In this document: one piece after another, positions 10,802-57,726 of the stretch
Numbering within the stretch: position 1 is the stretch's first letter
How the letters are laid out: every line of letters starts with the position of its first letter
DNA from: Candidatus Omnitrophota bacterium
GTDB taxonomy: Bacteria; Omnitrophota; Gorgyraeia; Zapsychrales; Zapsychraceae
Assembly: GCA_029261055.1 (NCBI GenBank)
Contig: JAJDCA010000014.1
Location: 143,984-207,983 of the forward strand
Length of the DNA stretch: 64,000 bases
Reading direction: 5' to 3'
Notes under the pieces: generated by a model
Database searches by the model: none
What the model saw: only the letters and a program-made list of their open reading frames with translations
What the model was told of the DNA's origin: nothing
Position numbers and translations under genes: made by a program

Positions 10802-11407
10802 ATGAATATTAAAGAACTAAGCCAATTTGACGTTAAAGATTTTAAAAATATTGATTTTGAAGAAATTAAGGAGCGTTTTCTTAGCCGGCCAGACTATGCT
10901 ATTGGCGGAACAATCCTTATTGTCGCATTATTTTTGACTTTAACAGTTTACAATAAATATAAATCAGAAAAGGCACATTTAAATCAGCAAATACCTCTTC
11001 TTATTGAAAAATTAGAGGTGGTTGAACATCATAAGAAAATTAAAAAAGAATATGAGGGCTTTGTAAATAGTTTTCCATCTTTTGTTGTTTACGATAAAAT
11101 TATCAATTTATTTTCTAAGATAGCGGCTAAGCACCGCGTTCAAATTACGTCATTTTCTCCAGCTAAACGCGAAGATAATGAATTCATCAGGATGACACAA
11201 GTAACAATGAATGTTACTACAAAAAATTACGATGATTTAGTAAGTTTTATGGAAGCTGTTGGAAATATTTCGGAGGCTCTTAGGCTTACCCATTGGTCTG
11301 GCGGGATGAGGACAGTACAGAGTACTCGCCGGAGGCAACAAACAACAGGTGAAAAAACTATCTGGGCAAATTTTTCAATCGAGGCTGTCCAATTAATTGA
11401 TGAATAA
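10802..11407 (+). CDS. pilO: PilO/GspM-like inner-membrane pilus assembly protein
   Basis: 201 aa with a single TM (AIGGTILIVALFLTLTVY) followed by a periplasmic domain. Position between pilM/N and pilP. Confidence 0.5.
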   Translation: MNIKELSQFDVKDFKNIDFEEIKERFLSRPDYAIGGTILIVALFLTLTVYNKYKSEKAHLNQQIPLLIEKLEVVEHHKKIKKEYEGFVNSFPSFVVYDKIINLFSKIAAKHRVQITSFSPAKREDNEFIRMTQVTMNVTTKNYDDLVSFMEAVGNISEALRLTHWSGGMRTVQSTRRRQQTTGEKTIWANFSIEAVQLIDE

Positions 11408-11822
11408 AATAATCTTTCAATTTTTGATTCTATGTGTGGTATTGTTTATTTCAACAGGGGATGTCCGTGCAGAGAAATATTTAAATCCGTTTAAATCAAG
11501 GTTGCCGGCAATCAAAATACTACCCAAAAAAGGGTTGGATACTACGTCTAGGCCTCATCAGAATGATTTTCGTCCTCAGGGACCTGATAATACTAAGAAT
11601 TTGATTCCGGTTCCACCACAACCGCAACCCGAACTGGAACCAAAGCTAATGCCGGAGCTAACGATTACAGGGCTCATTTGGAATTCGGATCGTCCGCAAG
11701 CGATTATTAATGCAGAAGTTGTAGGCATAGGAGATATTGTTTCAGAAGTGGAAATTATATCCATTAATAAAAAAGGTGTTGCTGTTTCTTTTGATGGCAG
11801 AACAATAACAATAAGTCCATAA
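11400..11822 (+). CDS. pilP: PilP-like periplasmic protein with a signal peptide
   Basis: Signal peptide MNKIIFQFLILCVVLFISTGDVRA, then a Pro-rich linker and a C-terminal beta domain (TITGLIWNSDRPQAIIN...). ATG chosen at 11400 in preference to the TTG at 11397 in the ORF track. Sits immediately upstream of the secretin gene. Confidence 0.45.
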   Translation: MNKIIFQFLILCVVLFISTGDVRAEKYLNPFKSRLPAIKILPKKGLDTTSRPHQNDFRPQGPDNTKNLIPVPPQPQPELEPKLMPELTITGLIWNSDRPQAIINAEVVGIGDIVSEVEIISINKKGVAVSFDGRTITISP

Positions 11823-11903
11823 ATGTTAGGGCTGTAAATTATTTGCAATTTTTTACACTTTTTTAGGTCATAAATTTGGCATTCTTGAAATGAAAAAGTC
11901 ATA

Positions 11904-13508
11904 ATGTGTGACCTAATAAAGTTTATCTGGAGGGATTTTATGAAAATAAAGAAAATGATAAAGCTTTTATTGCCTGCAATATTTTTATCTTTTTTAACCT
12001 TTTCAAATGCGTCTGCTTTGTATTTGGATGATCTGATTTATGAAGTAGATAATTCTAAAAAGATTTCCATGGATTTTAAAAATGCTTTATTAAATGATGT
12101 TTTAAAAATTTTTTCTCAACAGTCGGGATTAAATTTTATTGCGACTAATGATATTTCTGAAAAGACGGTTAATTTGTATCTTGATCAAGTCCCGGTTGAG
12201 GAGGCGTTAGAGCGTATTTTATCTGCAAATGATTTAACTTATGAGATAAAGGCTGGAAGCAATGTATTTGTTGTTAAGGCTTTAGACAAACCGGCCAAAC
12301 ACCTTATGACGCGTGTTTATCATTTAAAACATGCCACCGTCCCGTCTTCAAAATTAAATTCAACATTGTCAGGATTTGACAGTGGTGGTGGATCAGACTC
12401 AGGTGGTGGCGGAGAAGAAGGTGGGGAATCTGGTGGGGGGGAATCTGGTGGAGCTGAAGGAGAAAGTGGAGGTTCCTCCGGTGGATCTTCCGGAGGAGGT
12501 CTTGTCGATGCCGTTAGTGCCATTTTAACGGGAGACGGCAAGATTGTTGAGGACCCCAGGACAAACAGTTTAATTATTACAGATATTCCTTCGATGTTTC
12601 CGATGATTGAACAGACCATAGCTCGGTTAGATACCCGAAATCCTCAAATCCTTATTGAAGCAGAGATGTTGGATATTTCTAAGAATGCCACAGATGAATT
12701 AGGCGCTAAATTTGGGAAAGAGGCTGTAAATTTTCATGGAGCTTCTAAGCAATCGGTATTCCCTTTTGATAGTGGAAGTGTCCTTCGGTCACATGATTTT
12801 GCAACGCCCAAGTATACAGCCAGTAAAATATCTTTCGAAAATCTTAATTTTGTTGTAGAGTTTTTACGAAAGCAAACGGATACGAGAAATTTAGCCCGAC
12901 CGCGTATATTAACATTAAATAACGAAACAGCAGAAATTAATATTAAAACAGATGAGACCATAGGTGTGACGACTACAGCAGATTCTTCTGGTGATGGAAC
13001 CAGCTCTCTTGAGACTGTGGAAGCCGAACGTGCGGAAACAGGTGTTACTTTAAAAGTCACGCCTCAGGCGAATATTGAAACGAGGGAAATCATCATGGCT
13101 ATTGAGCCAAAGGTTATTCAGGCTAGAGCAGTATCAAGTGAATTTGAAGTATTTGGGGCTTTTAAAGATCCTGAAGAGCGCGGAGCCAAGGCTATACTAC
13201 GTGTCAGGGATGGAGATACTATTGTTATCGGAGGTTTGTTACGAACCGATATTAATCAAACAAAAACAAAAGTTCCTCTCGTAAGTAGAGTCCCTATTTT
13301 GGGGATGGCTTTTCGGCATAAAAATAAGACAGAAATACAACGTGAGTTGATTATTTTTATCACACCGCATATTCTTGATGAGGCAGTTGCTTTGCATTCT
13401 CAATCTTCTGACAGTTTTCAGAAGATTGTTCGTGAGCAGGATATTCCAAATAAAAAACTTGATCAAATAAACAAAGATTTGTCGTATATTGAAAAAAATA
13501 GATATTAA
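11904..13508 (+). CDS. pilQ: Type IV pilus/T2SS secretin (PilQ/GspD family)
   Basis: 534 aa with a signal peptide, N-domains and a Gly/Ser-rich linker. The C-terminal secretin domain reads RVRDGDTIVIGGLL...VPLVSRVPILGMAFRHKNK...ELIIFITPHIL. Confidence 0.85.
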   Translation: MCDLIKFIWRDFMKIKKMIKLLLPAIFLSFLTFSNASALYLDDLIYEVDNSKKISMDFKNALLNDVLKIFSQQSGLNFIATNDISEKTVNLYLDQVPVEEALERILSANDLTYEIKAGSNVFVVKALDKPAKHLMTRVYHLKHATVPSSKLNSTLSGFDSGGGSDSGGGGEEGGESGGGESGGAEGESGGSSGGSSGGGLVDAVSAILTGDGKIVEDPRTNSLIITDIPSMFPMIEQTIARLDTRNPQILIEAEMLDISKNATDELGAKFGKEAVNFHGASKQSVFPFDSGSVLRSHDFATPKYTASKISFENLNFVVEFLRKQTDTRNLARPRILTLNNETAEINIKTDETIGVTTTADSSGDGTSSLETVEAERAETGVTLKVTPQANIETREIIMAIEPKVIQARAVSSEFEVFGAFKDPEERGAKAILRVRDGDTIVIGGLLRTDINQTKTKVPLVSRVPILGMAFRHKNKTEIQRELIIFITPHILDEAVALHSQSSDSFQKIVREQDIPNKKLDQINKDLSYIEKNRY

Positions 13509-13556
13509 TAGGAATTACGTAATAATAATTTTTACGCAATTCTCTAAGGAGCAAAA

Positions 13557-15299
13557 ATGGCACATTTAAAATTAGGCGAGATTTTAATTAAGCAAGGACT
13601 CATAACCGAAAATCAGCTTGAAGAGGCCATAGAGATCCAGAAAAAAGATAAAGGGCGTATTGGGGAAATTTTAATTAAGCAGGGGATTATCAGTGAAGAA
13701 AATATGAATGCAGCTTTAGGGACACAGTTAGGGATGCCATATTACACTTCGGATAAACCTGAACTGCTCACGCCTCAACCAGATCAAGGTTTAGAAAAAA
13801 TTGTTCCACCGGATTTTGCCACAAAGAATGGAATTTTACCTTTATCTAAGCAATTGAATTCTTTAACGTGTGCCGTTGTCGATCCATTAGATCTTCTTAT
13901 GTTGGATAATTTAAAAATAATTACAGGTTGTGAAATTAACCCTGTCATTGCTACACGCTCAGCTATTCAAGAAGCAACCAGGGATTTTTACTTTTCAAAA
14001 TCGTCAGATTCAGGAATGCCGACAATGCTGGATAGGGCTGTTGAGAGATCGCATTCAGAAAAAAAGACGGCGGAAATTCTTACACCGCAAAGAAAAACTC
14101 AGGCTACTGCAGAGCTTAGCTTAGATAAGCTTATTGCCCAGGCAGGCGAAGCGCCTGTTATTAAGCTGGTTGATTTAATCATCCGTCAGGCTATTGATGA
14201 AGGGGCTAGTGATATTCATATTGAACCTTTTGAAGATAAAATTTTCTTGCGGTACAGGATTGATGGGCATCTTTACAATATTCCTCCGCCAGCAGCGCAT
14301 TTGCATTTACCTATTGTGTCACGAATAAAAATTTTAGCCAAACTCGATATTGCAGAAAAACGCCTTCCACAAGATGGGGCTATTACGGCTAAATTGGAGG
14401 AGCGATTGGTTGACCTCCGTGTTTCTACGATTCCCACAGTTTGGGGTGAAAAAGTGGTTATGCGTATTTTAGACAAGGGAGCTGTGCCGTTAGAATTAAC
14501 CGGTTTAGGGTTTGACCAAAAACAAATAGATATATTGCGCAAGTCATTGAGTGCACCGTATGGATTGTTTTTTGTCACAGGACCGACAGGGAGTGGGAAA
14601 TCAACTTCTTTGTATGCGGCTGTTAATGAAACGATTGATCCTCGGAAAAATATTATTACGGTAGAGGATCCTGTTGAATATAAAATTGAAGGGATTAATC
14701 AGGTAAATGTTAAGCCAGACATTGGGTTAACCTTTGCAACGGCGCTTAAGGCGTTTTTGCGTCAGGATCCGGATGTTATTATGGTTGGGGAAACGCGAGA
14801 CTTGGAAACAGCTTCTATTTGTGTGCGAGCAGCTTTGACAGGACATTTTGTTTTGAGTACCTTGCATACGAATGATGCAGCCTCAGCCATATCGCGCCTT
14901 ATTGATATTGGCGTCCCTAATTATTTATTAACCCCGTCTTTAGTGATGATTATGGCTCAGCGTTTGGTTCGCAAACTTTGTCCGGAATGCAAGGAGGCTT
15001 ATGAGCCTACAGAAGAACAGCATGGAGGGATTAAATTTAAGAGTGACTTAGTCTATCGTGCCAAGGGATGCGACAAATGTAAACAATCTGGATACAAGGG
15101 AAGACTTGTTGTTGCAGAAGTTCTTTTGGTCAATGATGACATCCGGACATTAATATCGCAAGAAGCAACGTCAGGAGCTATTAAAGATGCCGCCAGGAAA
15201 AATGGGATGGTGACAATTTTTGAATCAGCGCTTAAGTTGGTTGAAAAAGGTATCAGCAGTTATGAAGAGGCCTGTCGTGTTAGTGTTGATGGACAATAA
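13557..15299 (+). CDS. pilB: Type IV pilus assembly ATPase PilB/GspE with an N-terminal MshEN-type c-di-GMP-binding domain
   Basis: Walker A GPTGSGKST, Asp box, His box and a C-terminal tetra-Cys motif (CPECK...CDKCKQSGY). The N-terminus carries two tandem 24-aa motifs, KLGEILIKQGLITENQLEEAIEIQ and RIGEILIKQGIISEENMNAALGTQ. Confidence 0.9.
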   Translation: MAHLKLGEILIKQGLITENQLEEAIEIQKKDKGRIGEILIKQGIISEENMNAALGTQLGMPYYTSDKPELLTPQPDQGLEKIVPPDFATKNGILPLSKQLNSLTCAVVDPLDLLMLDNLKIITGCEINPVIATRSAIQEATRDFYFSKSSDSGMPTMLDRAVERSHSEKKTAEILTPQRKTQATAELSLDKLIAQAGEAPVIKLVDLIIRQAIDEGASDIHIEPFEDKIFLRYRIDGHLYNIPPPAAHLHLPIVSRIKILAKLDIAEKRLPQDGAITAKLEERLVDLRVSTIPTVWGEKVVMRILDKGAVPLELTGLGFDQKQIDILRKSLSAPYGLFFVTGPTGSGKSTSLYAAVNETIDPRKNIITVEDPVEYKIEGINQVNVKPDIGLTFATALKAFLRQDPDVIMVGETRDLETASICVRAALTGHFVLSTLHTNDAASAISRLIDIGVPNYLLTPSLVMIMAQRLVRKLCPECKEAYEPTEEQHGGIKFKSDLVYRAKGCDKCKQSGYKGRLVVAEVLLVNDDIRTLISQEATSGAIKDAARKNGMVTIFESALKLVEKGISSYEEACRVSVDGQ

Positions 15300-15325
15300 G
15301 CTAGTACTTAAAAAGGGAACAAAAA

Positions 15326-16558
15326 ATGCCGAAATTTTCTTTTGTAGTTAAGGATCAAGAGGGGAAAGCTTACAAAAATATTGTCGAAGCTGGGAGTCAG
15401 GCTGAACTCGTTGATAAACTTCAGAAACAAGGCTATTTTATTGTTAATATTAAAGAGCATGGTATATCAGCAAGGCCGCAAAAACCAGTTCAGGCAAATG
15501 TTAAAAAGAAATTTGGTCATACGAAAGTTAAGTTAGAGGATTTGTTAACTTTTTCCCGTCAGATGGCGACTATGCTTGAATCTGGGGTTACATTAAGCCG
15601 CAGTTTAGGCGTTATTAAAGCTCAAGTTGAAAGTCAGAAATTATATAACGTTTTAAATGAGGTGCATGCAAGTATTGAGGAGGGGGGATCATTAAGTCAG
15701 GCCTTGGGAAAACATCCTACAGTTTTTAACCAATTTTGGGTTAGTCTCATAGAAGTCGGTGAAGCTTCAGGAACCATTCCGAGTGTATTAGGAAAATTGG
15801 CTTTTTATATGGAGCAGCAGGCAGCATTTAAATCTACAGTTATTTCTGCTATTATTTATCCCGCTATTTTGTTTGCTGTTTCTATGGGGGCTATCAGTTT
15901 TTTTGCTCTTTTTGTTGGCCCAAAATTTGAAGAAATTTTTATTTCTATGAAAACCGAGCTACCTATAGTTACAAAGGTTTTATTGGGACTCTTTAGATTC
16001 TTAAGGTCAAATTTATTGGTGATTACTGGGGTGGTTATTGGGTTTGTTATGGCGTTAAAGTTTTATATACGGACATATCGCGGAAGGCTTCTTTTTGAGA
16101 AACTTGTATTTCGTTTGCCTGCAATAGGGGAAGTGTATAAACAAATTATTGTTGAGAGGTTTGCTTCTCAAATGTCTCTTTTGATTGATGCGGGGGTGCC
16201 TATTCTTTATGCGTTAGATATTGCGGAAAGACTAGTAGATAATAATGTTTGTGCTCTTATTATTAATAATGTGAAAGAAAAGGTCCGGGAAGGTGAGCTT
16301 CTCATGGCCCCGATGGAGCGGAGTGGATTTTTTCCTCCTATGTGTGTCCAGATGATTATGGTGGGGGAAGAAACAGGAGAATTGAGTAAAATGTTTAAGC
16401 ATGTAGCTGCATACTATCAAGATACCGTTTCGACATTTATGAAGCGTTTTGCCACCATTATTGAACCGCTTATGCTGGTTTTTATGGGGGCCATAATCGG
16501 AACTATTGTTGTAGCTATGTTTATGCCAATGTTCAATCTTTCTCAGATAGGAGGGTAA
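15326..16558 (+). CDS. pilC: Type IV pilus inner-membrane platform protein PilC/GspF
   Basis: 410 aa with two GspF repeats and three TM segments; conserved motifs LESGVTLSRSL and MIMVGEETGEL. Confidence 0.9.
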   Translation: MPKFSFVVKDQEGKAYKNIVEAGSQAELVDKLQKQGYFIVNIKEHGISARPQKPVQANVKKKFGHTKVKLEDLLTFSRQMATMLESGVTLSRSLGVIKAQVESQKLYNVLNEVHASIEEGGSLSQALGKHPTVFNQFWVSLIEVGEASGTIPSVLGKLAFYMEQQAAFKSTVISAIIYPAILFAVSMGAISFFALFVGPKFEEIFISMKTELPIVTKVLLGLFRFLRSNLLVITGVVIGFVMALKFYIRTYRGRLLFEKLVFRLPAIGEVYKQIIVERFASQMSLLIDAGVPILYALDIAERLVDNNVCALIINNVKEKVREGELLMAPMERSGFFPPMCVQMIMVGEETGELSKMFKHVAAYYQDTVSTFMKRFATIIEPLMLVFMGAIIGTIVVAMFMPMFNLSQIGG

Positions 16559-40930: not shown

Positions 40931-43900
40931 ATGACTAATACGCAATCCAAGAAATTCTATTTTTTTATTTTTTTATTTTTCTTTTTGTCTGGAGCTACAG
41001 GACTTGTATATCAGGTCATCTGGGCCAAATATTTATCTAACATTTTTGGAAGTACAGCGTATGCCCATACAATTGTGTTAGCCGTGTTTATGGGAGGATT
41101 GGCGTATGGAAATTATTTGCTTGGTAGAATTGCAGATCGTTTTAAAGGGAATTTATTGTATTTGTATGGGGTGATTGAATTGATTATTGGCATTTATTGT
41201 ATGTTTTATCCTAATATTGCAAATTTACTGGAGACCGTCTATCAGAATATTGCTTGGCATTTTCATCTTTCATCAACCAGCAAAAGTCTATTGGCGTTAC
41301 AATTCTTTTTTAATAGTGTGAATATTTTTATTCCAACTATGTTGATGGGAGGGACCCTCCCGATTATGGCGAAATTTATTACACACAAGAAGACGGAAAT
41401 TCTCAATAAAATTTCTATCCTTTATTTTATTAATAGTGTAGGTGCTGTTTTTGGGAGCCTTCTTTGCGGTTTTTTTCTCATTCGACTATGGGGGTTAGAT
41501 ACAAGTATTTCCGTTGCTGCGAGTATTAATGTTTTAATAGGGTTTTTGAGTATCGGTATTTCTAAGAGGGGCGGGAGGGTTTTAGGCGCATCGGATGTAA
41601 CCGAACAAACTTCATCCGAAAGAGATGTAGCATTGGAAGAATATAAACCGTCTTTTCGAAAAATTATTATTTTTGCGATTGGGATGAGTGGTTTTGTATC
41701 CATGCTTTACGAGGTTATGTGGATCAGGACATTGACACAGCTTTTCGGTTCGTCAGTCTATTCCTTTTCTCTTGTTGTGGCCGCTTTTATTGCTGGAATA
41801 AGTTTGGGTAGCTGGTGGTTAGCTAAAAATGCAATAAAAATAAAAGAAAAATATTATTTCTTTGGGGTCGTGCAAGCTTTAATTGCCATCACAATGTGTT
41901 TTTGTGTGTTGAGCATTAATCATTTTACTGAATGGGTTTGGTTTTTGTACCAGACTTTTAATACAAGAGAGTTTGTTTATCCCATATTTCTCTTTGCAAA
42001 GTTTTTTCTCGTATTTTTGATATTATTGTTGCCGACATTTTTTATTGGGATCACATTGCCTTTGGCAGGGTCCATATGTGCGAAAAGTCTAAAAATTCTA
42101 GGACGGGACGTAGGTAATGTGTTTTCGATCAATACTTTGGGGGCTCTATTTGGCACCGCCATAGCCGGGCTTATTTTATTGCCCAATATTGGCATTCTTA
42201 ATAGTTTTTATATCGGGATATTGATTAATTTAATTTTGGCGCTAATCCTTTTTCTGAGTTTGCGGCAAAAGAAATCGTTGCGAAATGCTTTGGGTGTTTT
42301 CGTTGTTTTCATCAGCCTATTAATATTTCAGCCGTTAAGTTTAGATAATAACTTGATGTTGACAAGCCTTTTTCGTTACAAAGCAAACGGGCAAATTAAC
42401 TTTTCAGAATATTTTAATTTGATAACGAATAAAAGGAAAATTCTTTATTATAAAGAAGGGCTAAATGGCAACGTTGCTGTTACAAAGATGGGAGATCAGA
42501 AGACTTTGTTTATTAATGGCAAACCAGATGCTTCATCAACTGGGGATATGCCAACACAATTATTGTCAGGACATCTTCCCGCATTATTGCATAAAAATCC
42601 GCGTAAGGTTCTTGTCATTGGTTTTGGAAGTGGTGTAACGGTTGGCGCATTGACGCGGCATTCTTCTATTGAACAAATTGATGTTTTAGAAATTTCTCCT
42701 GCAGTGATCGGAGCTGGAAAATTTTTTAAAGAGGTTAATAATGATTGTCTGAATAATAAAAAAGTTAATGTTATTATTGATGACGCAAAGAATTTTCTTT
42801 CCATAAATAAAGAAAAATATGATCTTATAATTAGTGAACCAACAAATCCTTGGACCGCAGGGACGGCTTCTTTACTGACGGTTGAATCATTTAAACGCAT
42901 TAAAAAATCTTTAAAGGAAGGTGGAATTATTCTGCAATGGTTTCATACCTATGAAATGAGTAATGATTTATTTCGAAGCATTGGAGCGAGTTTTACACAT
43001 GTTTTTCCAAAAGTAAGTGTTTGGCAGCCGGCTAATGGGGATTGTTTTTTCATCGGAAGCATGGAAGGAATCGACGGGAACCCTTTTAGGATGCAAACAG
43101 CTATTCAACAAAATGATGAGGTTAAGCAAAGTTTAAGACAAATCCATGCAGACAATATTTACAGCATCTTAAGTACACAGGTTTTATCTGCTCAAAAAAC
43201 ATATGAATTGTTTTACCGGAAGGCATTATTAAATGAAGACCGTTACCCGATTATCGAATTTAATGCGCCTCGAGCTTTTTTTCTTCGTAAGAGAGTGACT
43301 CTTTTGCAGGAAGCAGATGAACGTATTCATTTTGACAAGGCTAACAGTCTTATTTTGTCGCAGTTTCTTTCCCAAAAAGAATTAAATAATCAAGACATTA
43401 TGGATGTGTATCATTTTATGAAGACATCGAGGGTTTCACTTGTGAACCCTTTTCTTGAACATTATTTAGATACATTACTTTCAATGTCAGAAGATAAAAT
43501 TTCAGAAAAATTATTTCTTGAAATAAAGAAAAATGAACAACAAAGTCGTATTCAAATGTTAGAAAGGCTTAAAGAATTAAAAACGGAAAACCCCAATTCG
43601 TATGCAACTTTTCAGGCTTACCGTAAGGGATTGCAACATGAATATTTAGTGCGCCGTTCAATTTTTTTCAAGAATGAGGAGATGTATCAAGAAATTGAAC
43701 AATTAATTCTTGAGGGGGTAAATACATATCATGAGCATAAATATGAGTTGATCCTTCAGCTAGCAGATTTTTTTGCAGATCAGCATGAATATGAAAAATC
43801 GTTAGAAAAATATTTTGAAATTATCGTTTCAGGGGCACAAAATAATACAACAGAAAATAAAGGAGTTGTGAAGGCTGCTTTATTGAGGGTGAAGGATATG

Positions 43901-44008
43901 AGTTTAAAATACAATGATGTCGGAAGTCTTGTTAAAGTACGTGAATTAGCCGTAAAAATTTTTCCTGATGACGAGCGATTACTTCGGGACATTAGAAAAA
44001 ATAATTAA
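40931..44008 (+). CDS. Large polytopic membrane protein with a spermidine/spermine synthase-like domain and a C-terminal helical domain
   Basis: 1025 aa. About 480 aa of MFS-like TM region, then an aminopropyltransferase/methyltransferase fold (VLVIGFGSGVTVGAL, IDVLEISPAVI, DLIISEPTNPW), then about 300 aa of helical repeats. Confidence 0.75.
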   Translation: MTNTQSKKFYFFIFLFFFLSGATGLVYQVIWAKYLSNIFGSTAYAHTIVLAVFMGGLAYGNYLLGRIADRFKGNLLYLYGVIELIIGIYCMFYPNIANLLETVYQNIAWHFHLSSTSKSLLALQFFFNSVNIFIPTMLMGGTLPIMAKFITHKKTEILNKISILYFINSVGAVFGSLLCGFFLIRLWGLDTSISVAASINVLIGFLSIGISKRGGRVLGASDVTEQTSSERDVALEEYKPSFRKIIIFAIGMSGFVSMLYEVMWIRTLTQLFGSSVYSFSLVVAAFIAGISLGSWWLAKNAIKIKEKYYFFGVVQALIAITMCFCVLSINHFTEWVWFLYQTFNTREFVYPIFLFAKFFLVFLILLLPTFFIGITLPLAGSICAKSLKILGRDVGNVFSINTLGALFGTAIAGLILLPNIGILNSFYIGILINLILALILFLSLRQKKSLRNALGVFVVFISLLIFQPLSLDNNLMLTSLFRYKANGQINFSEYFNLITNKRKILYYKEGLNGNVAVTKMGDQKTLFINGKPDASSTGDMPTQLLSGHLPALLHKNPRKVLVIGFGSGVTVGALTRHSSIEQIDVLEISPAVIGAGKFFKEVNNDCLNNKKVNVIIDDAKNFLSINKEKYDLIISEPTNPWTAGTASLLTVESFKRIKKSLKEGGIILQWFHTYEMSNDLFRSIGASFTHVFPKVSVWQPANGDCFFIGSMEGIDGNPFRMQTAIQQNDEVKQSLRQIHADNIYSILSTQVLSAQKTYELFYRKALLNEDRYPIIEFNAPRAFFLRKRVTLLQEADERIHFDKANSLILSQFLSQKELNNQDIMDVYHFMKTSRVSLVNPFLEHYLDTLLSMSEDKISEKLFLEIKKNEQQSRIQMLERLKELKTENPNSYATFQAYRKGLQHEYLVRRSIFFKNEEMYQEIEQLILEGVNTYHEHKYELILQLADFFADQHEYEKSLEKYFEIIVSGAQNNTTENKGVVKAALLRVKDMSLKYNDVGSLVKVRELAVKIFPDDERLLRDIRKNN

Positions 44009-50261: not shown

Positions 50262-50780
50262 ATGGGATTAAGACATCGAAAACAGTCACGTGAAACTGAA
50301 GAAGATAAGACGATTGAAATTAGTGCTCAGATGCAGGGGTCACTGGTATTTAAAGATCCGATTGATTTGAAGATAAATGGCAATTTTGATGGGAGCCTGG
50401 AAGCCAGAGGGACGGTTACGATTGGAGAAACATCTAGCGTTGAGGCTGATGTCAGTGCAGACAATATTGTCATTGCGGGAAAGATTACAGGCAATATTAA
50501 GGCGAGCAAAATGTTGGTGCTTATGCCAACAGCTGTCTTAAAAGGAGACATTTCGACACCCAAGTTGAATATTGTTGAAGGCGCCATTTTTCATGGCAAT
50601 TGTCAAATGGTGGATGATTTATTAGGGATTGATGAAGTGTCGAGATATCTTGAAATTGACATTAATGAAATTGAAGAGCTCGCAAAATCTGGTCGTATCC
50701 CTGGGTTAAAAAAGGGAGAAGATTGGAAATTTGAACGCAATCAAATCGACAATTGGGCTTCTTCGGGAAAATTGAAATAA
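50262..50780 (+). CDS. Bactofilin-domain protein with a C-terminal excisionase-type (HTH_17-like) helix-turn-helix
   Basis: Residues about 20-120 are beta-helix bactofilin repeats (GTVTIGETSSVEADVSADNIVIAGKITGNIKASKMLVLMPTAVLKGDISTPKLNIVEGAIFHGN). The C-terminus VSRYLEIDINEIEELAKSGRIPGLKKGEDWKFERNQIDNW fits the excisionase-family HTH pattern. Confidence 0.7.
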   Translation: MGLRHRKQSRETEEDKTIEISAQMQGSLVFKDPIDLKINGNFDGSLEARGTVTIGETSSVEADVSADNIVIAGKITGNIKASKMLVLMPTAVLKGDISTPKLNIVEGAIFHGNCQMVDDLLGIDEVSRYLEIDINEIEELAKSGRIPGLKKGEDWKFERNQIDNWASSGKLK

Positions 50781-50784
50781 TAGA

Positions 50785-50890
50785 ATAAAAGAAGCAAAGG
50801 TGTAAAGAGGCAAGATGCAGAGACAAAAAAGTCAGTAGAGATTTTAAATCTTTGCTTCTTGTTTCTTATTCCTCTGCTTCTCTAAAAAAA
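50785..50890. repeat. Copy C of the dispersed AG/CT palindromic element
   Basis: aaagaagcaaaggtgtaaagaggcaagatgcagagacaaaaaa ... ctttgcttcttgtttcttattcctctgcttctctaaaaaaa. Ends directly at the ATG of the following gene. Confidence 0.6.
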
Positions 50891-51193
50891 ATGACGGCAT
50901 CCCAATTCATATCCGTAAGAGAAACAGCCCAAATACTTTCTGTATCTGAGAAGAAAGTGATGGAAATTATTGCCGACCGAAAGTTGCAAGCCTACCGCAT
51001 TGCCAATAAATTTTTACGTCTCAAAAAAGCCGATGTATTGTTTTTGCGTAATTCCGGCAACATCGCCACCGAAACCATGGCTCACGCATACACCTCCTCC
51101 GAAAAAATAAAAGACTTTTTCTATTTTAACGACTTTTACCTACTCTCCGCCGTCTTCGCCAGCGGCTTGCTGTACGTCATATTTTTTACATAA
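50891..51193 (+). CDS. Small tail-anchored protein: N-terminal excisionase-type HTH plus a C-terminal TM helix
   Basis: MTASQFISVRETAQILSVSEKKVMEIIADRKLQAYRIANKFLRLKKADV (HTH_17-like), then a linker and the C-terminal helix LLSAVFASGLLYVIFF. ATG at 50891 preferred over the TTG at 50852, which lies inside the repeat. Confidence 0.5.
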   Translation: MTASQFISVRETAQILSVSEKKVMEIIADRKLQAYRIANKFLRLKKADVLFLRNSGNIATETMAHAYTSSEKIKDFFYFNDFYLLSAVFASGLLYVIFFT

Positions 51194-51283: not shown

Positions 51284-54200
51284 ATGAAAAAAATGTGTAA
51301 AATAATCATTTTTCGTGTTTTTGTGTGGTTAATCTTTTTTATCTTTATGGTTCAAGGGATAGGGCCTTTGCCATTGTCCCATGCTCAGACATCTATGCCT
51401 ATCGAAGGTTCTGGTGTGCAAGGTTTACGTTTGGGGTTAACACCAATGTTTACACCTGTTTTGCTTAAAGGGATTAAAATTTTCCCGAGTAATCCATTTC
51501 AGTTTGAGTTTATGGTGGGTGCGGGCAATACGGTTGTGCAGGGTGATTTACTCAAAAAAGAATCATCCCGGCTTGTTAAATACTTTTTAACATCCCTTAC
51601 AGTCCCGGATGCAGATTTGTGGGTTAATCTTTCTCCAGACGAACCAGATCGGATTATTCCCGAGCAATTTGGTCAAACCGAAATGGGACGTGACCTGTTG
51701 GCACAGGACTACAGGCTGAAACAAATCACAGCATCATTGATGTATCCGGAAGATGAGTTAGGGGAAGAATTTTGGGATCAGGTGTATGAGCAGGTGTATC
51801 AAGAATATGGAACAATGAATATTCCGATTGATATGCTTAACAAAGTTTGGATTGTGCCGGAGAAAGCCGTTGTCTACGAGAATGTAGAAATGAACACGGC
51901 ATTTGTGCTGGAATCACGGTTGCGTGTTATGCTGGAAGAAGATTATGTAGGGGAGGGGCTTGCCCCCTCCCGTATTACGGGCAGACGCAAGGCCCGCCCC
52001 TACAGTAATTCTAATAAGATTTCCACCGCAGTCATCCGTAAAATTATTATTCCCGCCATTGAACGCGAAGTTAATCATGGACAGGGATTTTCTAAATTAC
52101 GCCAAATTTACCATTCCTTGATTCTTGCCACATGGTTTAAGCGCAATCTTAAGAAGTCTATTTTGAGTCAGATCTATGTGGGTCAAAATAAAATTACAGG
52201 TGTAGATATCCATGACAAACAAGCGAAAGATAAACTTTACCATCAATATTTAAAGGCCTTTCAGAAGGGGGCATACAACTACATCAAAGAAGATTACGAC
52301 CCGGTTACTCAGCAAATCGTACCCAGGAAGTATTTTTCAGGAGGGATTGAGTTGGCGATGCTTTCTTCAGGAAAAAAAGTTTTTGAGGCATTAGATGCGG
52401 CCATGCAGGTTACGAAAGAAATTTCGGATCAGTTGTTAAAAGAAATAACAGGGAAAACAGCAAGTTTTAAAGTACCTGTAAAGATTCTTCCAGAATCGGG
52501 GAAGGACACAAAAGGGACAAATTTAGGAATTTTTACAGCAAAAAAACAAAAGAAATTTAGAAATATTATTAATCCTAAAAAAGTAAAAACAGCGGAAGAT
52601 TTAGTCCGCATTATTGAGCAAATAAAAAAGGATAATATCCCAAAGGAAAGAAATTATTCCAAATACAGCCGCGTTTTAATAACCGGAATATCCATTCTTT
52701 CGCATGAATTGTACCAGCCATACCTTAATGATTTAGCCCGTATTAAGCTGAATGAGCTTAATACATTGGAAATTGACATCCAGGAATCTGACTTTAATTG
52801 GACAAAAGATATGCTGCATAGATTGCAAGTTTTAGCCAATTTTATCCCAACCATCGAAAATCCTAATGAGGACTTATTTATTGATGTTTTTGCAGGTTTT
52901 ACGGATGAACAGATAAAGATACTAGCAAATTCAGGGGATTTTCTGGATTTACAATTAAGTAAAAATTGTGTGCATCAATGTCTGTTTTGTAATGTTTCAA
53001 AGAATACGATACAAGGGGCCCCACGGCATATGCCATTTTCTCTTGCCATCAAAATAGCAAAGCGGATTCGTCGAGAAGGGCAATCTAATGTAAGTTTATA
53101 TCGGAAGAGCGACCCTTTGCATTATCATGACAAGGTCATTAATGCCACGTATGGTGATGTTGCTAGGCACTTAATTCCACTAGGGTATTATCTTTCTACA
53201 ATAACGCATGGGGATACAGGTGTTTTAGGGGAAGAGAATATGCGAGAAATTGTAAAAAGGTTTCCTCCATCCTTGTGGGGGCTCGAATTTAGTTTAAATG
53301 CTTATTATGCGAATGTAAAAAGGTATGCAATCAAAAAGGTGAATGGTGAAATAGATGCTGCGGAGGATGATGAAGTTAGGCAAAAACTTGTAAAGCCATA
53401 TGTGGATAATTTTGCTTCATTATTAGTAGAGCTTATTCCACAGGTTGAAGTAGACATAAGAGATCTTTTTTATGGTAAAAAAGTCGAGAAAATTTTGGAA
53501 GGGGCTGGTTTGCAGTTTGCGCTATCTGTTGTCAAAGAAATGCAATCTGTGCAAAATAAAATTTGGGAAGATGTCGGTAAAATTGTTTTTGAAAAAACAG
53601 GAAAATATATTCCTGTAAAGCATGATTTTGAATTTACAAGTGGCATTCGTTTTACTTATGATATGGTTTGGGAAAGTGATGCTGTATCATTTTTAAAAGA
53701 GTTAGGTGTTAAGGAAGATATTATTAGAGGCATTAATAAAAGTACACAAAGAGGGTTAGATGATCGTACTGAAGGCGAAAATTTTGTTTTACAGATTAAT
53801 ACAAATGGTTCTTTGTCATTACGAGTTGCAGAGGCTGAGGATCTTCGATTTAGAACCTTTGAAGAAATGTTTACGAGCGCTGATGCGGAAGGATTTCGCT
53901 CTTTTTTAGAGGTTATTAAAATTGTTCTTAAAACAAATTCTTTTAAATTTGATAAACAAATGGATGCAAAAGTATTAAGAAAAGATGTTAGTAAGGGGGT
54001 GCTTAAAAAATTATTTAAGAATGCTCTTAATTCCTCGGAAGATATTGAGAAATTCTTAATTAATAGAAGTTATTTGGTGAAAGGTTCAACACTTCAAACA
54101 TTCCACTATTTTGAAGTATTATTTGGTTTTTTTTATTCTAAAGAAGACATGTTGGCTGATTTGAAAAATAAGAAGTTTGAAGATATGTTTGAGAAATTAA

Positions 54201-54757
54201 AAAAAGTGCCTTTTCCTATTGGGGTAGACTTTTTTGTTAAGTTTAAACAAAAACAGTTTTTAGATAGGTATTCTTACCGAATTATTAAGGATCAGCATCC
54301 AAGATATCCGAGAAATATTAATCAATCAGTTCGTCATTTCAATTTGTCAAAAAATGTATTTTCCTCATTAAGAGAAAATAATCCTCTTGAAATTGAATAT
54401 GAAAAGTTAGAACGCCCGTCATTTATTGATGAAAGCAACCAAACTGCTTTTTATGATTCGGCACTTCTTGCAGACGGGCTTAATGAGAAATTTGGCGGGA
54501 TTGATTTGACTGCGGATAGTTTGCCTTTGCAGGCACGTGGAGAGGGAATTGAGTTTAAGTTTCCTTCTAACAGTAATATTCCTTGTTTCGATGATGACAA
54601 CGACGGTACCTGTGACCGTATTGATGTAGAAGGGCTTGCTACTATGTCCATCACGGGATTTCGGCCGGAGTTTTTTGAAATTGTGCCGGTGAATAGTGTG
54701 TCGGGATGGTTGGGCATTTCAGTGCAACGACCAACCATCCCAGATCTGTCTTTATGA
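51284..54757 (+). CDS. Giant hypothetical protein (1157 aa) with an N-terminal signal or anchor sequence and a central CX3CX2C motif
   Basis: Long uninterrupted ORF. N-terminus MKKMCKIIIFRVFVWLIFFIFMVQG. About 560 aa in: SKNCVHQCLFCNV (CX3CX2C), followed about 40 aa later by SDPLHY, which recalls the radical-SAM GGEPL position. No other family is recognisable by eye. Confidence 0.6.
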   Translation: MKKMCKIIIFRVFVWLIFFIFMVQGIGPLPLSHAQTSMPIEGSGVQGLRLGLTPMFTPVLLKGIKIFPSNPFQFEFMVGAGNTVVQGDLLKKESSRLVKYFLTSLTVPDADLWVNLSPDEPDRIIPEQFGQTEMGRDLLAQDYRLKQITASLMYPEDELGEEFWDQVYEQVYQEYGTMNIPIDMLNKVWIVPEKAVVYENVEMNTAFVLESRLRVMLEEDYVGEGLAPSRITGRRKARPYSNSNKISTAVIRKIIIPAIEREVNHGQGFSKLRQIYHSLILATWFKRNLKKSILSQIYVGQNKITGVDIHDKQAKDKLYHQYLKAFQKGAYNYIKEDYDPVTQQIVPRKYFSGGIELAMLSSGKKVFEALDAAMQVTKEISDQLLKEITGKTASFKVPVKILPESGKDTKGTNLGIFTAKKQKKFRNIINPKKVKTAEDLVRIIEQIKKDNIPKERNYSKYSRVLITGISILSHELYQPYLNDLARIKLNELNTLEIDIQESDFNWTKDMLHRLQVLANFIPTIENPNEDLFIDVFAGFTDEQIKILANSGDFLDLQLSKNCVHQCLFCNVSKNTIQGAPRHMPFSLAIKIAKRIRREGQSNVSLYRKSDPLHYHDKVINATYGDVARHLIPLGYYLSTITHGDTGVLGEENMREIVKRFPPSLWGLEFSLNAYYANVKRYAIKKVNGEIDAAEDDEVRQKLVKPYVDNFASLLVELIPQVEVDIRDLFYGKKVEKILEGAGLQFALSVVKEMQSVQNKIWEDVGKIVFEKTGKYIPVKHDFEFTSGIRFTYDMVWESDAVSFLKELGVKEDIIRGINKSTQRGLDDRTEGENFVLQINTNGSLSLRVAEAEDLRFRTFEEMFTSADAEGFRSFLEVIKIVLKTNSFKFDKQMDAKVLRKDVSKGVLKKLFKNALNSSEDIEKFLINRSYLVKGSTLQTFHYFEVLFGFFYSKEDMLADLKNKKFEDMFEKLKKVPFPIGVDFFVKFKQKQFLDRYSYRIIKDQHPRYPRNINQSVRHFNLSKNVFSSLRENNPLEIEYEKLERPSFIDESNQTAFYDSALLADGLNEKFGGIDLTADSLPLQARGEGIEFKFPSNSNIPCFDDDNDGTCDRIDVEGLATMSITGFRPEFFEIVPVNSVSGWLGISVQRPTIPDLSL

Positions 54758-55069
54758 TTTCTTTTCTAATACTTTTGTCAATTCCCCGCTATTGTGCAGT
54801 TCTATGAGGATGTCACAACCGCCGACAAATTCGCCGTTGGCGTAGAGTTGGGGGATGGTAGGCCAGTCGGAGTATTCTTTAATACCTTCACGAATGTCTT
54901 GGTCATCAAAGATGTTGAATGTTTCAAATTTAACTTTGTATTGGTCAAGGATATCCACCGCCGTTGCCGAAAATCCACATTGAGGAAAGTCGGGTGTGCC
55001 TTTCATGTAGAGAAAGATGGCATTGGATTTGATTTGGTCTTCTATTTTTTGTTTAAGTTCATCGGTCAT
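54752..55069 (-). CDS. grxD: Monothiol glutaredoxin (Grx4/GrxD family, CGFS active site)
   Basis: 105 aa containing FLYMKGTPDFPQCGFS and DILIELHNSGEL. Confidence 0.85.
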   Translation of the reverse strand: MTDELKQKIEDQIKSNAIFLYMKGTPDFPQCGFSATAVDILDQYKVKFETFNIFDDQDIREGIKEYSDWPTIPQLYANGEFVGGCDILIELHNSGELTKVLEKKS

Positions 55070-55083
55070 TGTGTCTCCTTTTT

Positions 55084-55178
55084 TAAAAGAAGCAAAGATG
55101 TAAAGAGGTAAGAGGTAGAGAAAAAATCATGTTGATGAAGCTTTTCTCTGCTTCTTGCGCCTTTGCTTCTTGTTTCTT
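55084..55178. repeat. Copy D of the dispersed AG/CT palindromic element
   Basis: aaaagaagcaaagatgtaaagaggtaagaggtagagaaaaaa ... cttttctctgcttcttgcgcctttgcttcttgtttctt. Lies between the bolA stop and the grx RBS on the minus strand. Its arms are nearly identical to copy C but arranged in a different order. Confidence 0.55.
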
Positions 55179-55182
55179 AACA

Positions 55183-55443
55183 CTAGAATCCATATTGTGT
55201 TTTTACTTCATTCCATTTATTGGGGGTAAACGTCCTTAACCCTAGGGCATGGACGGATTGTTTGAATTCTTCCTTTAAAGGTTTCATGACCATTTGATGC
55301 TGCTTAACAAGAGGCAGGCCTTCAAAGTTGGGGCTGATGACAATGGCTTCAAAATGCTGGCCGTCGTCTTTGGGTTCCATCACATGGGCCGTGGCACCTG
55401 TAACGGAGGATTCAATCATTTGTTTGAGGTCTTCTGACATCAT
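55183..55443 (-). CDS. bolA: BolA-family protein
   Basis: 86 aa with a BolA-like fold signature (IVISPNFEGLPLVKQHQMV...ALGLRTFTP). Adjacent to a CGFS glutaredoxin, its usual partner. Confidence 0.75.
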   Translation of the reverse strand: MMSEDLKQMIESSVTGATAHVMEPKDDGQHFEAIVISPNFEGLPLVKQHQMVMKPLKEEFKQSVHALGLRTFTPNKWNEVKTQYGF

Positions 55444-55477
55444 AAAATATTCCTTTCGAGTGAACCGTACACAAACC

Positions 55478-56425
55478 TCATGCAGACCCCCGAGGTTTGT
55501 GTCTGGTTACAAAGTCAATAACAGTATCTTCTAAACGGCCGTTGTTCAGCCGGTTGATTTCTTGTAAACAGGTAGGGGAGGTGACATTGACTTCGATGAG
55601 ATGATCACCGATTACGTCGATGCCTACAAAGTGCAACCCCAGTTTTTGTAAATGCGGTTTGAGAATTTGAATGATTGCCTCATCCCGCTTGGTTATTTCG
55701 GCGGGCATGGGTTTGCCGCCGGCAAAAAAATTGTTACGGTGTTCATCTTTTGCGTGCACACGCAATACCGCTCCGAGAGGGTCGCCATTAAGAAGAAGGA
55801 TGCGTTTATCGCCTTGGCTGGCTTCAGGTAAACATTGTTGCAGGATAATATCCTGAGCGCCATTGTGTGTTAAGGTTTCGATGATGACGCCAATATTTGT
55901 GTCGCCTTCACGGATACGAAAGATACCTTGGCCACCGTAGCCATTGATGGGCTTGGTGACGATTTCTTTTTCTTCAGATAAAAAGGCAAGGATGTCTGCT
56001 TTATTGCGTGTGATCAGGGTTCGGGGAATGAGCGAAGAAAATTGTGTCACCCAAATTTTCTCATTCGTCGTACGAATACCATTGGGGCTGTTCATGACAA
56101 GAATGCGTTCAGGCAATAAATCCAAGAGCCAGGTATTAAATAAATATTGAGCATCAAAAGGTGGATCATTGCGGATGAATACGGCATCAATGCTGTCTTC
56201 CGTTAAGGTAGCCATTTCATGTTGAATAAAGGGCTGTTCAGCGACTTGCTGGGGTGTGACTTCCGTGCAAGTAAAATGAAGTTTCCCATTTTTTTGTGTC
56301 AGTCCACCATTGTGGCAGGCATACACCTTGTGCCCTTTGCGATGGGCGCCGAGCATTAGAATAAACGATGTGTCTTTCTCCATGATGACGGTATGGAGAG
56401 GGTCCATGAGGAATACAAAATTCAT
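55478..56425 (-). CDS. gshB: Glutathione synthetase (prokaryotic ATP-grasp GshB)
   Basis: Aligns along its length with E. coli GshB: MDPLHTVIMEKDTSF, IRNDPPFD, LITRNKADILAF, GDKRILLLNGDP, VGIDVIGDHLIEVNVTSPTC. Confidence 0.9.
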   Translation of the reverse strand: MNFVFLMDPLHTVIMEKDTSFILMLGAHRKGHKVYACHNGGLTQKNGKLHFTCTEVTPQQVAEQPFIQHEMATLTEDSIDAVFIRNDPPFDAQYLFNTWLLDLLPERILVMNSPNGIRTTNEKIWVTQFSSLIPRTLITRNKADILAFLSEEKEIVTKPINGYGGQGIFRIREGDTNIGVIIETLTHNGAQDIILQQCLPEASQGDKRILLLNGDPLGAVLRVHAKDEHRNNFFAGGKPMPAEITKRDEAIIQILKPHLQKLGLHFVGIDVIGDHLIEVNVTSPTCLQEINRLNNGRLEDTVIDFVTRHKPRGSA

Positions 56426-57726
56426 TTTACATTTTCTTCCAGGCGAATAATTTCTCGATGCGCGGCAATGGCGGCAATACGGGCTAAAATGCGGTAGACG
56501 TCAAAAACATTGACATCATGATGAACTCCGCAGTCACCGTATTTACTGAGATGCGGACACATTTTTTTAAAGACCATGCCTTGGGCATTCAAATTGTCGC
56601 GCTGACCTTTACCGGCATGCGAACGGTAAAATCCACCGACAAGATTATTTTCAATTTGGTAAATGCACGCTTCACTGACTTCTTGTTCGATATTGTAAAT
56701 GGTGGACACCCCTTCCTGCAGAAGGAATCGGTCAATGATTTGTGCGCTTTTACCTTTGTACATCTTGTTACGATTTTTTCGGTTGAGCGTGAGAATATCT
56801 TTGGCATCCTCGATGGGAAGCACGCCCATGCCGTATGTTCCGGAATTTGATTTTAAAACAAGGTAAGGCTTTTCACTAATGTTGTGCTCTTTGTATTTGG
56901 CTTTAATATTGTTCAGTAAATCGGTAGCCGTATCAGCTAAAAGGGTGCGGTCATTTTCTTGATTAATGTTAACGTTGTTTACAACAGAGAATAAGCAGGA
57001 AAAAATCCAAGGGTCAACGTTAAGAATTTTGGCAAACTCTTCGATGAGATCTTTGGTGTGATCGAAATGATGCGACTTAAGGCGCGAATGCCAACCCGCC
57101 TGAATAGAAGGGTAGATCGGCACTTTAGCATTTTTTAAAACATCCGGAATTCCAGTCGTCAAATCATTATTCATGATCATCAAATCAAATTGTTGATGTC
57201 CTGCTTCGTAATCCGCTAAGATTTTTTTGAAACAGTGGATTTTAACGGGATGACCTGTGGCGGTCTCCAATTCAATCGCATGAGCCTTTTCACAAAAGCT
57301 TGGTTGAACGGTTAGAAAGGTTGCGATTTTGACATTGAATCCAGCACGTTCAATGATTTGCTGTAGGATGCGGACGTTTTCCAAATACCAGGCATTACGT
57401 GTGTGCTCTTCGGCAATAATGAGAATATTCTTACATTGCGGCATACGATTAAGGACTGCTTTACGGAGAAATTCGACGGAGTCAGTCAGACCGTGTTCAC
57501 AGAGATTGTTAAATCCGGCGGGAAAAATATTGGTATCCACGACGGCCATCTTAAATCCAGCATTACGAATGTCCACGGAAGAATAGAGAGGGAGTTCTTT
57601 GGCTTCTTCGTACGATTCCAGGAAGCGAAGGATTTCAGCTTGTTTATTTTGGATGCTTTCAATCAGTTGAGGCATCGGGTGCGTTGAATGCAAATGTGAT
57701 GTTTTATTCATGCCTGTATTATCCAT
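56422..57726 (-). CDS. gshA: Putative glutamate--cysteine ligase (compact GshA-family type); assigned mainly from context and size
   Basis: 434 aa, overlapping gshB by 4 nt (translational coupling). It does not resemble E. coli GshA; the call rests on its similarity, from memory, to the about 400-aa bacterial GshA-type family. Confidence 0.5.
   Translation of the reverse strand: MDNTGMNKTSHLHSTHPMPQLIESIQNKQAEILRFLESYEEAKELPLYSSVDIRNAGFKMAVVDTNIFPAGFNNLCEHGLTDSVEFLRKAVLNRMPQCKNILIIAEEHTRNAWYLENVRILQQIIERAGFNVKIATFLTVQPSFCEKAHAIELETATGHPVKIHCFKKILADYEAGHQQFDLMIMNNDLTTGIPDVLKNAKVPIYPSIQAGWHSRLKSHHFDHTKDLIEEFAKILNVDPWIFSCLFSVVNNVNINQENDRTLLADTATDLLNNIKAKYKEHNISEKPYLVLKSNSGTYGMGVLPIEDAKDILTLNRKNRNKMYKGKSAQIIDRFLLQEGVSTIYNIEQEVSEACIYQIENNLVGGFYRSHAGKGQRDNLNAQGMVFKKMCPHLSKYGDCGVHHDVNVFDVYRILARIAAIAAHREIIRLEENVK

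Follow-up and report, generated by a model that had tools for sequence, protein, structure and literature searches.

The window analysed here is a stretch of 64,000 nucleotides from contig JAJDCA010000014.1 of a Candidatus Omnitrophota bacterium, and the subject of this analysis is one gene in it that encodes a protein of 1157 residues, hereafter the query. A preliminary description had reported this open reading frame (ORF), a radical S-adenosylmethionine (SAM)-like cysteine motif behind an N-terminal hydrophobic stretch, and no recognisable family. The ORF is as given there, and its listed motifs were all located: KKMCK at residues 2-6 together with the hydrophobic stretch, CVHQCLFC, SDPLHY, THGDTG and the C-terminal segment CFDDDNDGTCDRIDVEG. 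The query is one member of a very large Omnitrophota family built on a fixed frame of an N-terminal and a C-terminal "bookend" module, and its exchangeable middle part, the cargo, is a divergent radical SAM module. The gene is composed as follows.

51284-54757, + strand: complete gene, 1157 aa, ATG start, from the ORF list; domain order signal peptide, N-module, linker, radical SAM cargo module, linker, C-module
51284-51385, + strand: predicted cleavable Sec-type signal peptide (aa 1-34; MKKMCK, hydrophobic core, ...LSHA/QTS), from heuristic features
51389-52348, + strand: conserved N-terminal bookend module (N-module, aa ~36-355), terminating at the boundary motif RKYFSGG
52331-52345, + strand: YFSGG of the N-module boundary
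52394-52405, + strand: D-x-A-M linker motif, here DAAM (aa 371-374), 17 residues past YFSGG
52592-52837, + strand: helical bundle that opens the cargo module (aa ~437-518)
52931-53599, + strand: divergent radical SAM core (aa ~550-772)
52967-52990, + strand: CVHQCLFC (aa 562-569) with the Cys triad C562/C566/C569
53108-53125, + strand: SDPLHY (aa 609-614), aligned to the GGE motif and beginning 40 residues after the last Cys of the triad
53204-53221, + strand: THGDTG (aa 641-646), aligned to the ribose motif
53666-54373, + strand: alpha/beta C-terminal extension of the cargo module (aa ~795-1030), from AlphaFold2 secondary structure
54455-54466, + strand: degenerate second linker motif DSAL (aa 1058-1061), 9 residues ahead of GGIDL
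54494-54721, + strand: conserved C-terminal bookend module (C-module, aa 1071-1146), from alignments; the stop codon follows 11 residues on
54584-54634, + strand: optional Cys/Asp-rich insertion in the C-module (aa 1101-1117, CFDDDNDGTCDRIDVEG)

Pfam gave one match for the query, to Radical_SAM at residues 558-615 (E 7e-5, 23.5 bits, below the gathering score of 29.5). NCBIfam, PADLOC, PHROGs and PDB sequences gave no meaningful match to the 1157-residue protein. A search of 5.8 billion proteins returned at least 3,453 significant homologues of 650-2,000 aa, each of which aligned over 27-41% of the query at 42-68% identity. The earlier statement that the protein belongs to no recognisable family therefore stands for curated libraries only, since these homologues share its termini. 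In the alignment map, residues 1 to ~385 were common to all matches and residues ~1050-1150 to many, and the middle was found in 2 of 120. Homologue sources that bore names were Omnitrophota or Omnitrophica. A scan of GTDB genomes yielded at least 580 confirmed loci and showed the family to be multi-copy per genome, with copy number and taxonomic limits to be read as lower-bound estimates. The locus statistics given below were obtained for 80 loci (L001-L080) kept out of these. Proteins in the loci were 753-2,381 aa long and usually had one cargo unit. The metagenome-assembled genomes (MAGs) of the 80 loci were all labelled Omnitrophota or Planctomycetales; the MAGs of L002, L004, L008, L011, L012, L014 and others were labelled "uncultured Planctomycetales" or "Planctomycetales bacterium". 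These labels reflect either misclassified bins or a family that reaches into Planctomycetota. Two more family members, P0043 and P0099, are located on the 321,631-bp contig of the query, and no second copy of the bookend protein was found inside the 64-kb window. A phage origin was rejected, as PHROGs gave noise only and just 3 loci carrying the N-module were found among 2.9 million viral contigs. A defence-system origin was rejected as well, because PADLOC gave no match.

The frame is preceded by a predicted signal peptide. In 211 members with complete N-termini, the uncharged core had a median length of 14 residues (interquartile range 12-19), the n-region had a mean net charge of +2.7 followed by 25 approximately neutral residues, a small-x-small site (AQA/Q, AYA/Q and others) was present in 92%, and the conserved N-module started at median residue 42. 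Heuristic features of a Sec signal peptide were present in the query and in 92-94% of these members. The N-terminus had been described before as a Sec signal or signal anchor; its Sec-like character agrees with the family heuristics, and an anchor is disfavoured by the short h-region. Within the N-module about 65 columns were invariant in 41 sequences, many of them polar. RKYFSGG ended the module in 174 of 181 members, and the sequences diverged right after it. The C-module, ~75 aa long, had the consensus GGIDL...L.LQ..G.G..F...GF.PVI..I.P..L..FLG and was located 0-62 residues from the stop codon; the corresponding pattern in the query is GGIDL...L.LQ..G.G..F...GF.P....I.P...L..LG. The query thus has all features that define a bookend protein: the signal peptide, an N-module ending in RKYFSGG and a C-module at the extreme C-terminus. 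The insertion at residues 1101-1117, previously taken for a Ca-binding loop, was restricted to some paralogues.

N- and C-modules were found to be obligately coupled. The C-module closed 57 of 61 complete ORFs with an N-module, three of the four exceptions being split genes, and it was found in 99 of the 120 top matches. In L043, L056 and L069 the N-module and the C-module are encoded by two successive ORFs, a pattern suggestive of frameshifts, assembly errors or genuine two-gene versions. Tandem pairs of bookend genes were observed in five loci (L003, L008, L024, L045 and L072). The C-module had no match in NCBIfam or PDB, and searches with NCBIfam on the C-terminus of the query at E<=1 and on 51 C-modules singly detected no C-terminal domain (CTD) of the type IX secretion system (T9SS; TIGR04183/TIGR04131 types). 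When 41 N-modules and 51 C-modules were scanned permissively against Pfam and NCBIfam, only weak matches came up (DUF896 in 14 of 41, best E 0.0014), and these were judged to be short helical noise. The model fold of the N-module was compared with solved structures, and on this model the module provisionally appears to have no known fold. The two frame modules are undescribed modules without relatives in Pfam, NCBIfam or PDB.

Between the modules the cargos were near-totally non-homologous. The 158 non-redundant proteins with both modules fell into 130 cargo homology clusters, 114 of them singletons, and homologous cargo was present in just 22 of 1,493 pairs whose N-modules were at least 70% identical. 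A Pfam census of 55 cargos gave 72 families, including Response_reg, HATPase_c, several methyltransferases, HEAT/Ank/TPR repeats, PPDK, Pribosyltran, Glu/Leu/Phe/Val and Ala dehydrogenases, GDSL lipase and a full-length phosphoglycerate kinase (PGK; E 1e-107). Pfam domains in the homologues comprised Pkinase, methyltransferases, GNAT, HATPase_c, Metallophos, Lactamase_B, PGK, PPDK_N, Radical_SAM with B12-binding, HEAT, pentapeptide, NUDIX and PLD. The frame behaved differently from the cargo. Pairwise identities of N- and C-modules were correlated with a Spearman coefficient of 0.64 (permuted maximum 0.11), and N-module identity was 68% among paralogues within a genome versus 57% between genomes. 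The frame modules also shared their composition. In the query, the GC content at third codon positions (GC3) was 0.417 in the N-module, 0.419 in the C-module and 0.24-0.27 in linkers and cargo, the latter value being lower than in every one of 20 reference genes in the window. Across 57 bookend genes, GC3 was 0.512 for the N-module, 0.511 for the C-module and 0.420 for the cargo (p about 1e-9 and 1e-7). The frame modules thus co-evolve and have a common composition, with the frame inherited and the cargo exchanged. The GC3 of the frame modules exceeded that of the enclosed cargo by about 9-15 points; this mosaic would be explained by any one of gene conversion between frames, selection on codons and a foreign origin of the cargo.

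The linkers were marked by the motif D-x-A-M, which was observed 198 times between the modules compared with 15.1 expected, a 13-fold enrichment. It was present at most 50 aa past the N-module in 49% of members and at most 45 aa ahead of the C-module in 35%, with a background of 2.9% per window. D-x-A-M is a candidate processing or docking site. That it separates the parts of giant multi-enzyme proteins in general was considered and rejected, as the motif was absent from the proteins examined that carry the radical SAM module of the query in other contexts; the sole examined carrier that had it was P0175, which has both frame modules.

The cargo of the query is a real but divergent radical SAM domain, as judged from its fold and its invariant Cys triad. 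The whole protein has six cysteines, at positions 5, 562, 566, 569, 1101 and 1110; because of this low number, the chance expectation for CxxxCxxC is only 1.6e-4 (1150 x (6/1157)^3). The triad has the spacing C562-x3-C566-x2-C569 with F568 preceding the last Cys, in agreement with the CX3CXφC pattern of the superfamily, and it was invariant in ~58 of ~58 homologues whose alignment spans it, at 25-35% identity. The invariance in all covering homologues settled the question of whether the motif is real, and the initial proposal of a radical-SAM-like CX3CX2C motif was confirmed. The profile search that had been suggested as a check points the same way: the sole Pfam match was Radical_SAM, although sub-threshold, and the triad is conserved in the homologues. 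The core has a partial (beta/alpha)6 TIM-barrel fold. In a profile alignment to YydG, S-D-P-L was placed over G-G-E-V, T-H-G over S-N-G and "iSfh" over "ISYD"; relative to the SAM-binding motifs (GGE, ribose motif, GxIxGxxE), the substitutions are conservative yet non-canonical. The Asp at module position 196 was invariant in the 17-sequence alignment A1. With the cluster motif and the fold in place, the cargo joins the radical SAM superfamily as a new, divergent member. Its only Cys are the three of the triad, and no SPASM/twitch auxiliary cluster can be assigned because there is no further Cys in the cargo; a single [4Fe-4S] site is predicted, at C562/C566/C569.

Word-indexed homology searches with the middle region or its profile returned nothing or the query alone, and relatives of the module were found by exhaustive HMMER search. 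The module of ~600 aa is rare, with 68 representatives among 1.84 billion proteins. Homologues spanned module positions 1-610 in one stretch, which shows that the C-terminal extension is inherited together with the radical SAM core; the alpha/beta extension itself gave no informative fold match. The module recurred (P0121-P0186) within very long proteins, the longest of 7,094 aa, and its position in them differed. The majority of these carriers were without the bookend modules and often had hydrophobic N-termini; the frame-lacking carriers were mostly also without D-x-A-M. In P0121 the module was accompanied by a weak Fic match, in P0125 by a methyltransferase domain. P0162, a shorter relative, attained 29.7 bits with PF04055. 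Within the radical SAM superfamily (PF04055), the nearest solved structures were EpeE/YydG (8ai1), MoaA (1tv7), SuiB (5v1q), SkfB (6efn), BtrN and viperin. EpeE, SuiB, SkfB, BtrN and MoaA have an auxiliary cluster, whereas the cargo of the query has no extra Cys. The query also differs from known radical SAM proteins in that its core is embedded in a module of ~600 aa with a helical bundle and a large alpha/beta extension, and in that it is located behind a predicted signal peptide. Because of its nearest structural relatives in the model comparison, the substrate is possibly a peptide or protein.

The surroundings of the gene were examined in the window and in the 80 family loci. The following features of the window are relevant here.

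9232-16558: type IV pilus/type II secretion-like cluster, ~35 kb upstream of the target gene
9232-10752: PilM-like protein
11904-13508: secretin with STN domain
13557-15299: T2SSE ATPase with MshEN domain
15326-16558: ORF without annotation after the T2SSE ATPase
40931-44008, + strand: fusion of a major facilitator superfamily transporter and a spermidine/spermine synthase, 1025 aa
47357-48700, + strand: S41 C-terminal processing peptidase, CtpA/Prc-like, with PDZ domains and a signal-anchor-like N-terminus
50262-50780, + strand: bactofilin fused to a C-terminal HTH_17/excisionase-type domain (bactofilin-HTH)
50779-50870 and 55084-55179: hairpin-forming repeat element of ~95 nt, only two copies in the window
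50852-51193, + strand: HTH_17 protein with a hydrophobic C-terminal tail (HTH-TM)
54703-54741: inverted repeat of 19 nt with a 1-nt loop, 84% complementary, in the last 55 nt of the target coding sequence
54752-57726, - strand: CGFS-type monothiol glutaredoxin (Grx), then BolA, GshB and GshA; convergent to the target gene, 3' ends overlapping by 6 nt

The bactofilin-HTH and HTH-TM neighbours were found by Pfam as they had been described. NCBIfam matched the HTH-TM protein weakly, below threshold, to the magnetosome protein MamR (E 1.6e-4, 21.9 bits versus a cutoff of 100). Co-occurrence of the family with these two genes had been suggested as worth checking, and no homologues of either were present in the 80 loci. 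The best conserved neighbouring gene cluster of the family occurred in 5 of 80 loci, with flanks consisting of housekeeping genes, and a functional link to neighbouring genes was rejected, since nothing was conserved across the loci. GshB is a glutathione synthetase and GshA a glutamate-cysteine ligase, and an Fe-S-trafficking/glutathione cluster adjoins a gene with a radical SAM domain. This adjacency is probably coincidental, because family members sit amid unrelated housekeeping genes. The repeats said to bracket the gene are real; the two copies agree at 88% over a 43-nt block and at 100% over a 19-nt block, and the ends can pair. They enclose three genes (HTH-TM, target and glutaredoxin) and not the target alone. 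The element is a candidate for a REP/MITE-like (repetitive extragenic palindrome/miniature inverted-repeat transposable element) or regulatory sequence. A scan for promoters and terminators around the gene gave nothing above shuffled expectation. The inverted repeat at 54703-54741 lies directly downstream of the stop codon of the minus-strand glutaredoxin gene and may be its terminator, although the consensus terminator scan did not call it. The S41 peptidase gene, 2.6 kb upstream of the target, deserves mention solely on account of the conserved module that family members carry at their extreme C-terminus. The window also encodes SecDF and a TolC-like protein. Because of these, together with the secretin, the T2SS/type IV pilus-type ATPase and PilM, the source cell is a diderm with plausible outer-membrane routes, none of which is tied to the target gene.

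The architecture was compared with known modular systems. Cargo proteins of the T9SS have a Sec signal peptide, diverse domains and a conserved C-terminal sorting domain of ~70-100 aa, and need no adjacent partner genes. The bookend family resembles them in its predicted Sec signal, diverse middles, conserved extreme C-terminus, many paralogues per genome and independence from adjacent partner genes. It differs in that the C-module matches no T9SS CTD model, in the additional obligatory N-module of 320 aa, and in cargo and host: T9SS cargos are extracellular hydrolases and adhesins of Bacteroidota, whereas bookend cargos are cytoplasm-type enzymes of Omnitrophota. In the MARTX (multifunctional autoprocessing repeats-in-toxin) proteins, conserved termini are the presumed delivery apparatus, and the swapped internal enzymatic effectors act in the target cell after proteolytic release. 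Conserved termini around exchangeable cytoplasm-type enzymes are likewise found in the bookend family. However, bookend proteins are without glycine-rich A/B/C repeats, a cysteine protease domain (CPD) or an architecture of the type I secretion system, they have a predicted Sec signal and are much smaller, and neither sequence nor fold is similar; Pfam and NCBIfam found no RTX or CPD domain in the query. A further parallel is within the same phylum. According to passages of bioRxiv 10.64898/2026.06.07.730766, giant "multi-enzyme" proteins of Omnitrophota have signal peptides or transmembrane segments ahead of methyltransferase, HATPase, GNAT, radical SAM and sugar-metabolism domains. The bookend family, in contrast, is compact (753-2,381 aa) and has a defined frame, and the giant-protein papers (West-Roberts et al. 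2023, bioRxiv 10.1101/2023.11.21.568195; bioRxiv 10.64898/2026.06.07.730766) cover, in the passages available, proteins of at least 10,000 aa. Passages of PMC10066038 and of these two preprints contain no mention of the N/C frame.

Topology rules applied to the family would put the bulk of the bookend proteins outside the cytoplasm. This predicted location contrasts with the cargo types, which require ATP, SAM, NAD, acetyl-CoA or a low-potential reductant. This paradox, cytoplasm-type domains behind signal peptides, also exists in the giant proteins of Omnitrophota (passages of bioRxiv 10.64898/2026.06.07.730766). We favour, with about even confidence, the interpretation that the frame is a common device for export, targeting or delivery and that the cargos act where their cofactors exist, most plausibly in the cytoplasm of another cell. 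Sec would move the unfolded bookend protein over the inner membrane, and the N- and C-modules would steer it to the envelope, the cell surface or a host or prey cell. The cargo might be released at D-x-A-M sites, which are candidate release points. The radical SAM cargo would load its cluster only in a reducing, SAM-containing cytoplasm, that of the target cell, and would there modify some substrate. A more specific version, which we put forward tentatively and consider rather doubtful, is an Omnitrophota-specific system for delivering cytoplasmic, cofactor-dependent enzymes into host or prey cells, with excision at D-x-A-M and frames homogenised by gene conversion. Enzymes would cross Sec unfolded, be handed on to the other cell by the two modules, taken here as novel folds, and become active after excision, and new effectors would arise by recombining any gene between the RKYFSGG and GGIDL junctions. 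A host-dependent predatory or parasitic lifestyle has been proposed for Omnitrophota in passages of PMC10066038 and bioRxiv 10.1101/2023.11.21.568195, and delivery into a target cell would fit it.

Several observations weigh against export and delivery. Export, surface location, processing and delivery are each predictions from sequence, and the signal peptide was called by simple heuristics. Fe-S radical SAM enzymes, phosphoglycerate kinase, response regulators and kinases normally act in the cytoplasm of the producer, so that the family may have an unconventional topology without export. No secretion, chaperone or immunity gene was linked to the family in the 80 loci. About half of the members are without D-x-A-M, and the second copy in the query is degenerate (DSAL). 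The N-module model is moderate (pLDDT 70, predicted local distance difference test) with its most conserved loop (aa 107-132) poorly modelled, and for this reason its lack of a known fold is provisional. As to the cargo, the query is below the PF04055 gathering threshold (23.5 versus 29.5 bits) and has SDP in place of GGE, and its catalytic activity is a prediction.

The cytoplasm-typical cargos (PGK, PPDK, amino acid dehydrogenases, response regulators, HATPase_c, methyltransferases and radical SAM), with their need for ATP, SAM, NAD or reductant, would be explained directly if the N-terminus were an uncleaved anchor or peripheral tag and the frame docked enzymes at a common intracellular site, be it a membrane face, a scaffold or a compartment. 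The radical SAM cargo would then work conventionally in its own cytoplasm. The family without a linked secretion gene is consistent with such membrane-tethered enzymes, as is the interpretation, in passages of bioRxiv 10.64898/2026.06.07.730766, of nearly half of the long Omnitrophota proteins as membrane-anchored with cytoplasmic domains. The N-terminus itself argues otherwise: the charge distribution (+2.7 in the n-region, about 0 in the next 25 aa) favours N-in/C-out, a typical transmembrane anchor would need a longer h-region than the median of 14 aa, the small-x-small (AxA/Q) site directly precedes the conserved module in 92% of members, and the query has no second transmembrane segment that would bring the chain back to the cytoplasm. 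We therefore regard tethering as unlikely. The predicted signal peptide is equally in line with a scaffold for surface or periplasmic display, in which one or both modules retain the protein in the envelope and the cargo acts outside or binds, many of the enzymes being inert. The conserved module at the extreme C-terminus follows the logic of C-terminal sorting domains, HEAT, ankyrin and TPR repeats as well as GDSL lipase, metallophosphatase, beta-lactamase fold and PLD cargos could act extracellularly, and giant Omnitrophota proteins are interpreted, in the passages of the literature available, as surface adhesion or cell-wall-degrading factors. Display is nevertheless quite improbable, since the invariant triad and the well-conserved PGK argue for a kept catalysis that needs intracellular cofactors, and the C-module, with no NCBIfam match, is without the motif, transmembrane helix and basic tail of known sorting signals.

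Conserved ends, a hypervariable cargo diversified by recombination and the sharp demarcation motifs RKYFSGG and GGIDL are also reminiscent of classical polymorphic toxin systems, in which a trafficking region, variable toxins and cognate immunity genes serve interbacterial competition. The junctions recall the VENN or PxxxxDPxGL boundaries of the polymorphic toxins reportedly described by Zhang et al. in 2012. In bookend proteins, however, the variable part is internal and not C-terminal, and the cargos are metabolic, regulatory or repeat domains and not nucleases, deaminases or pore-formers. No small downstream gene was recurrent in the 80 loci, where no gene cluster occurred in more than 5 and no cognate immunity gene was found; the gene downstream of the query is the convergent glutaredoxin gene. 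PADLOC gave no match. With immunity genes and toxin-like cargo lacking, a toxin system is largely refuted and has very little probability left. A last proposal, which follows the framing of the preliminary description, is an isolated novel membrane-anchored radical SAM enzyme functionally tied to the adjacent HTH genes. The earlier interpretation is supported in part: the radical SAM domain is real, and the gene does lie downstream of two HTH genes and beside the Grx/BolA/GshAB cluster. The termini, on the other hand, belong to a family of at least 3,453 members with unrelated cargos, the HTH neighbours have no homologues in the 80 related loci, and the radical SAM module is found in numerous other architectures that lack these neighbours. 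Family size, the coupling of N- and C-modules and the absent HTH homologues contradict that proposal, and we consider it highly improbable.

Omnitrophota are widespread, uncultivated and ultra-small bacteria that are supposed to be predators or parasites. A "hypothetical protein" of this phylum has become the entry point to thousands of proteins with a sharply bounded frame and near-unlimited cargo, and two new protein modules without relatives in Pfam, NCBIfam or PDB have been added. The cargo of the query defines a rare, divergent radical SAM clade without an auxiliary cluster. At about 1 kaa compared with 10-150 kaa, the family offers a compact model for the paradox of cytoplasm-type enzymes behind signal peptides in giant proteins. 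If the frame tethers enzymes inside the cell, it would represent an unusual way of organising metabolism. If it is an export or delivery device, the family would provide a ready catalogue of candidate effectors for the whole phylum.

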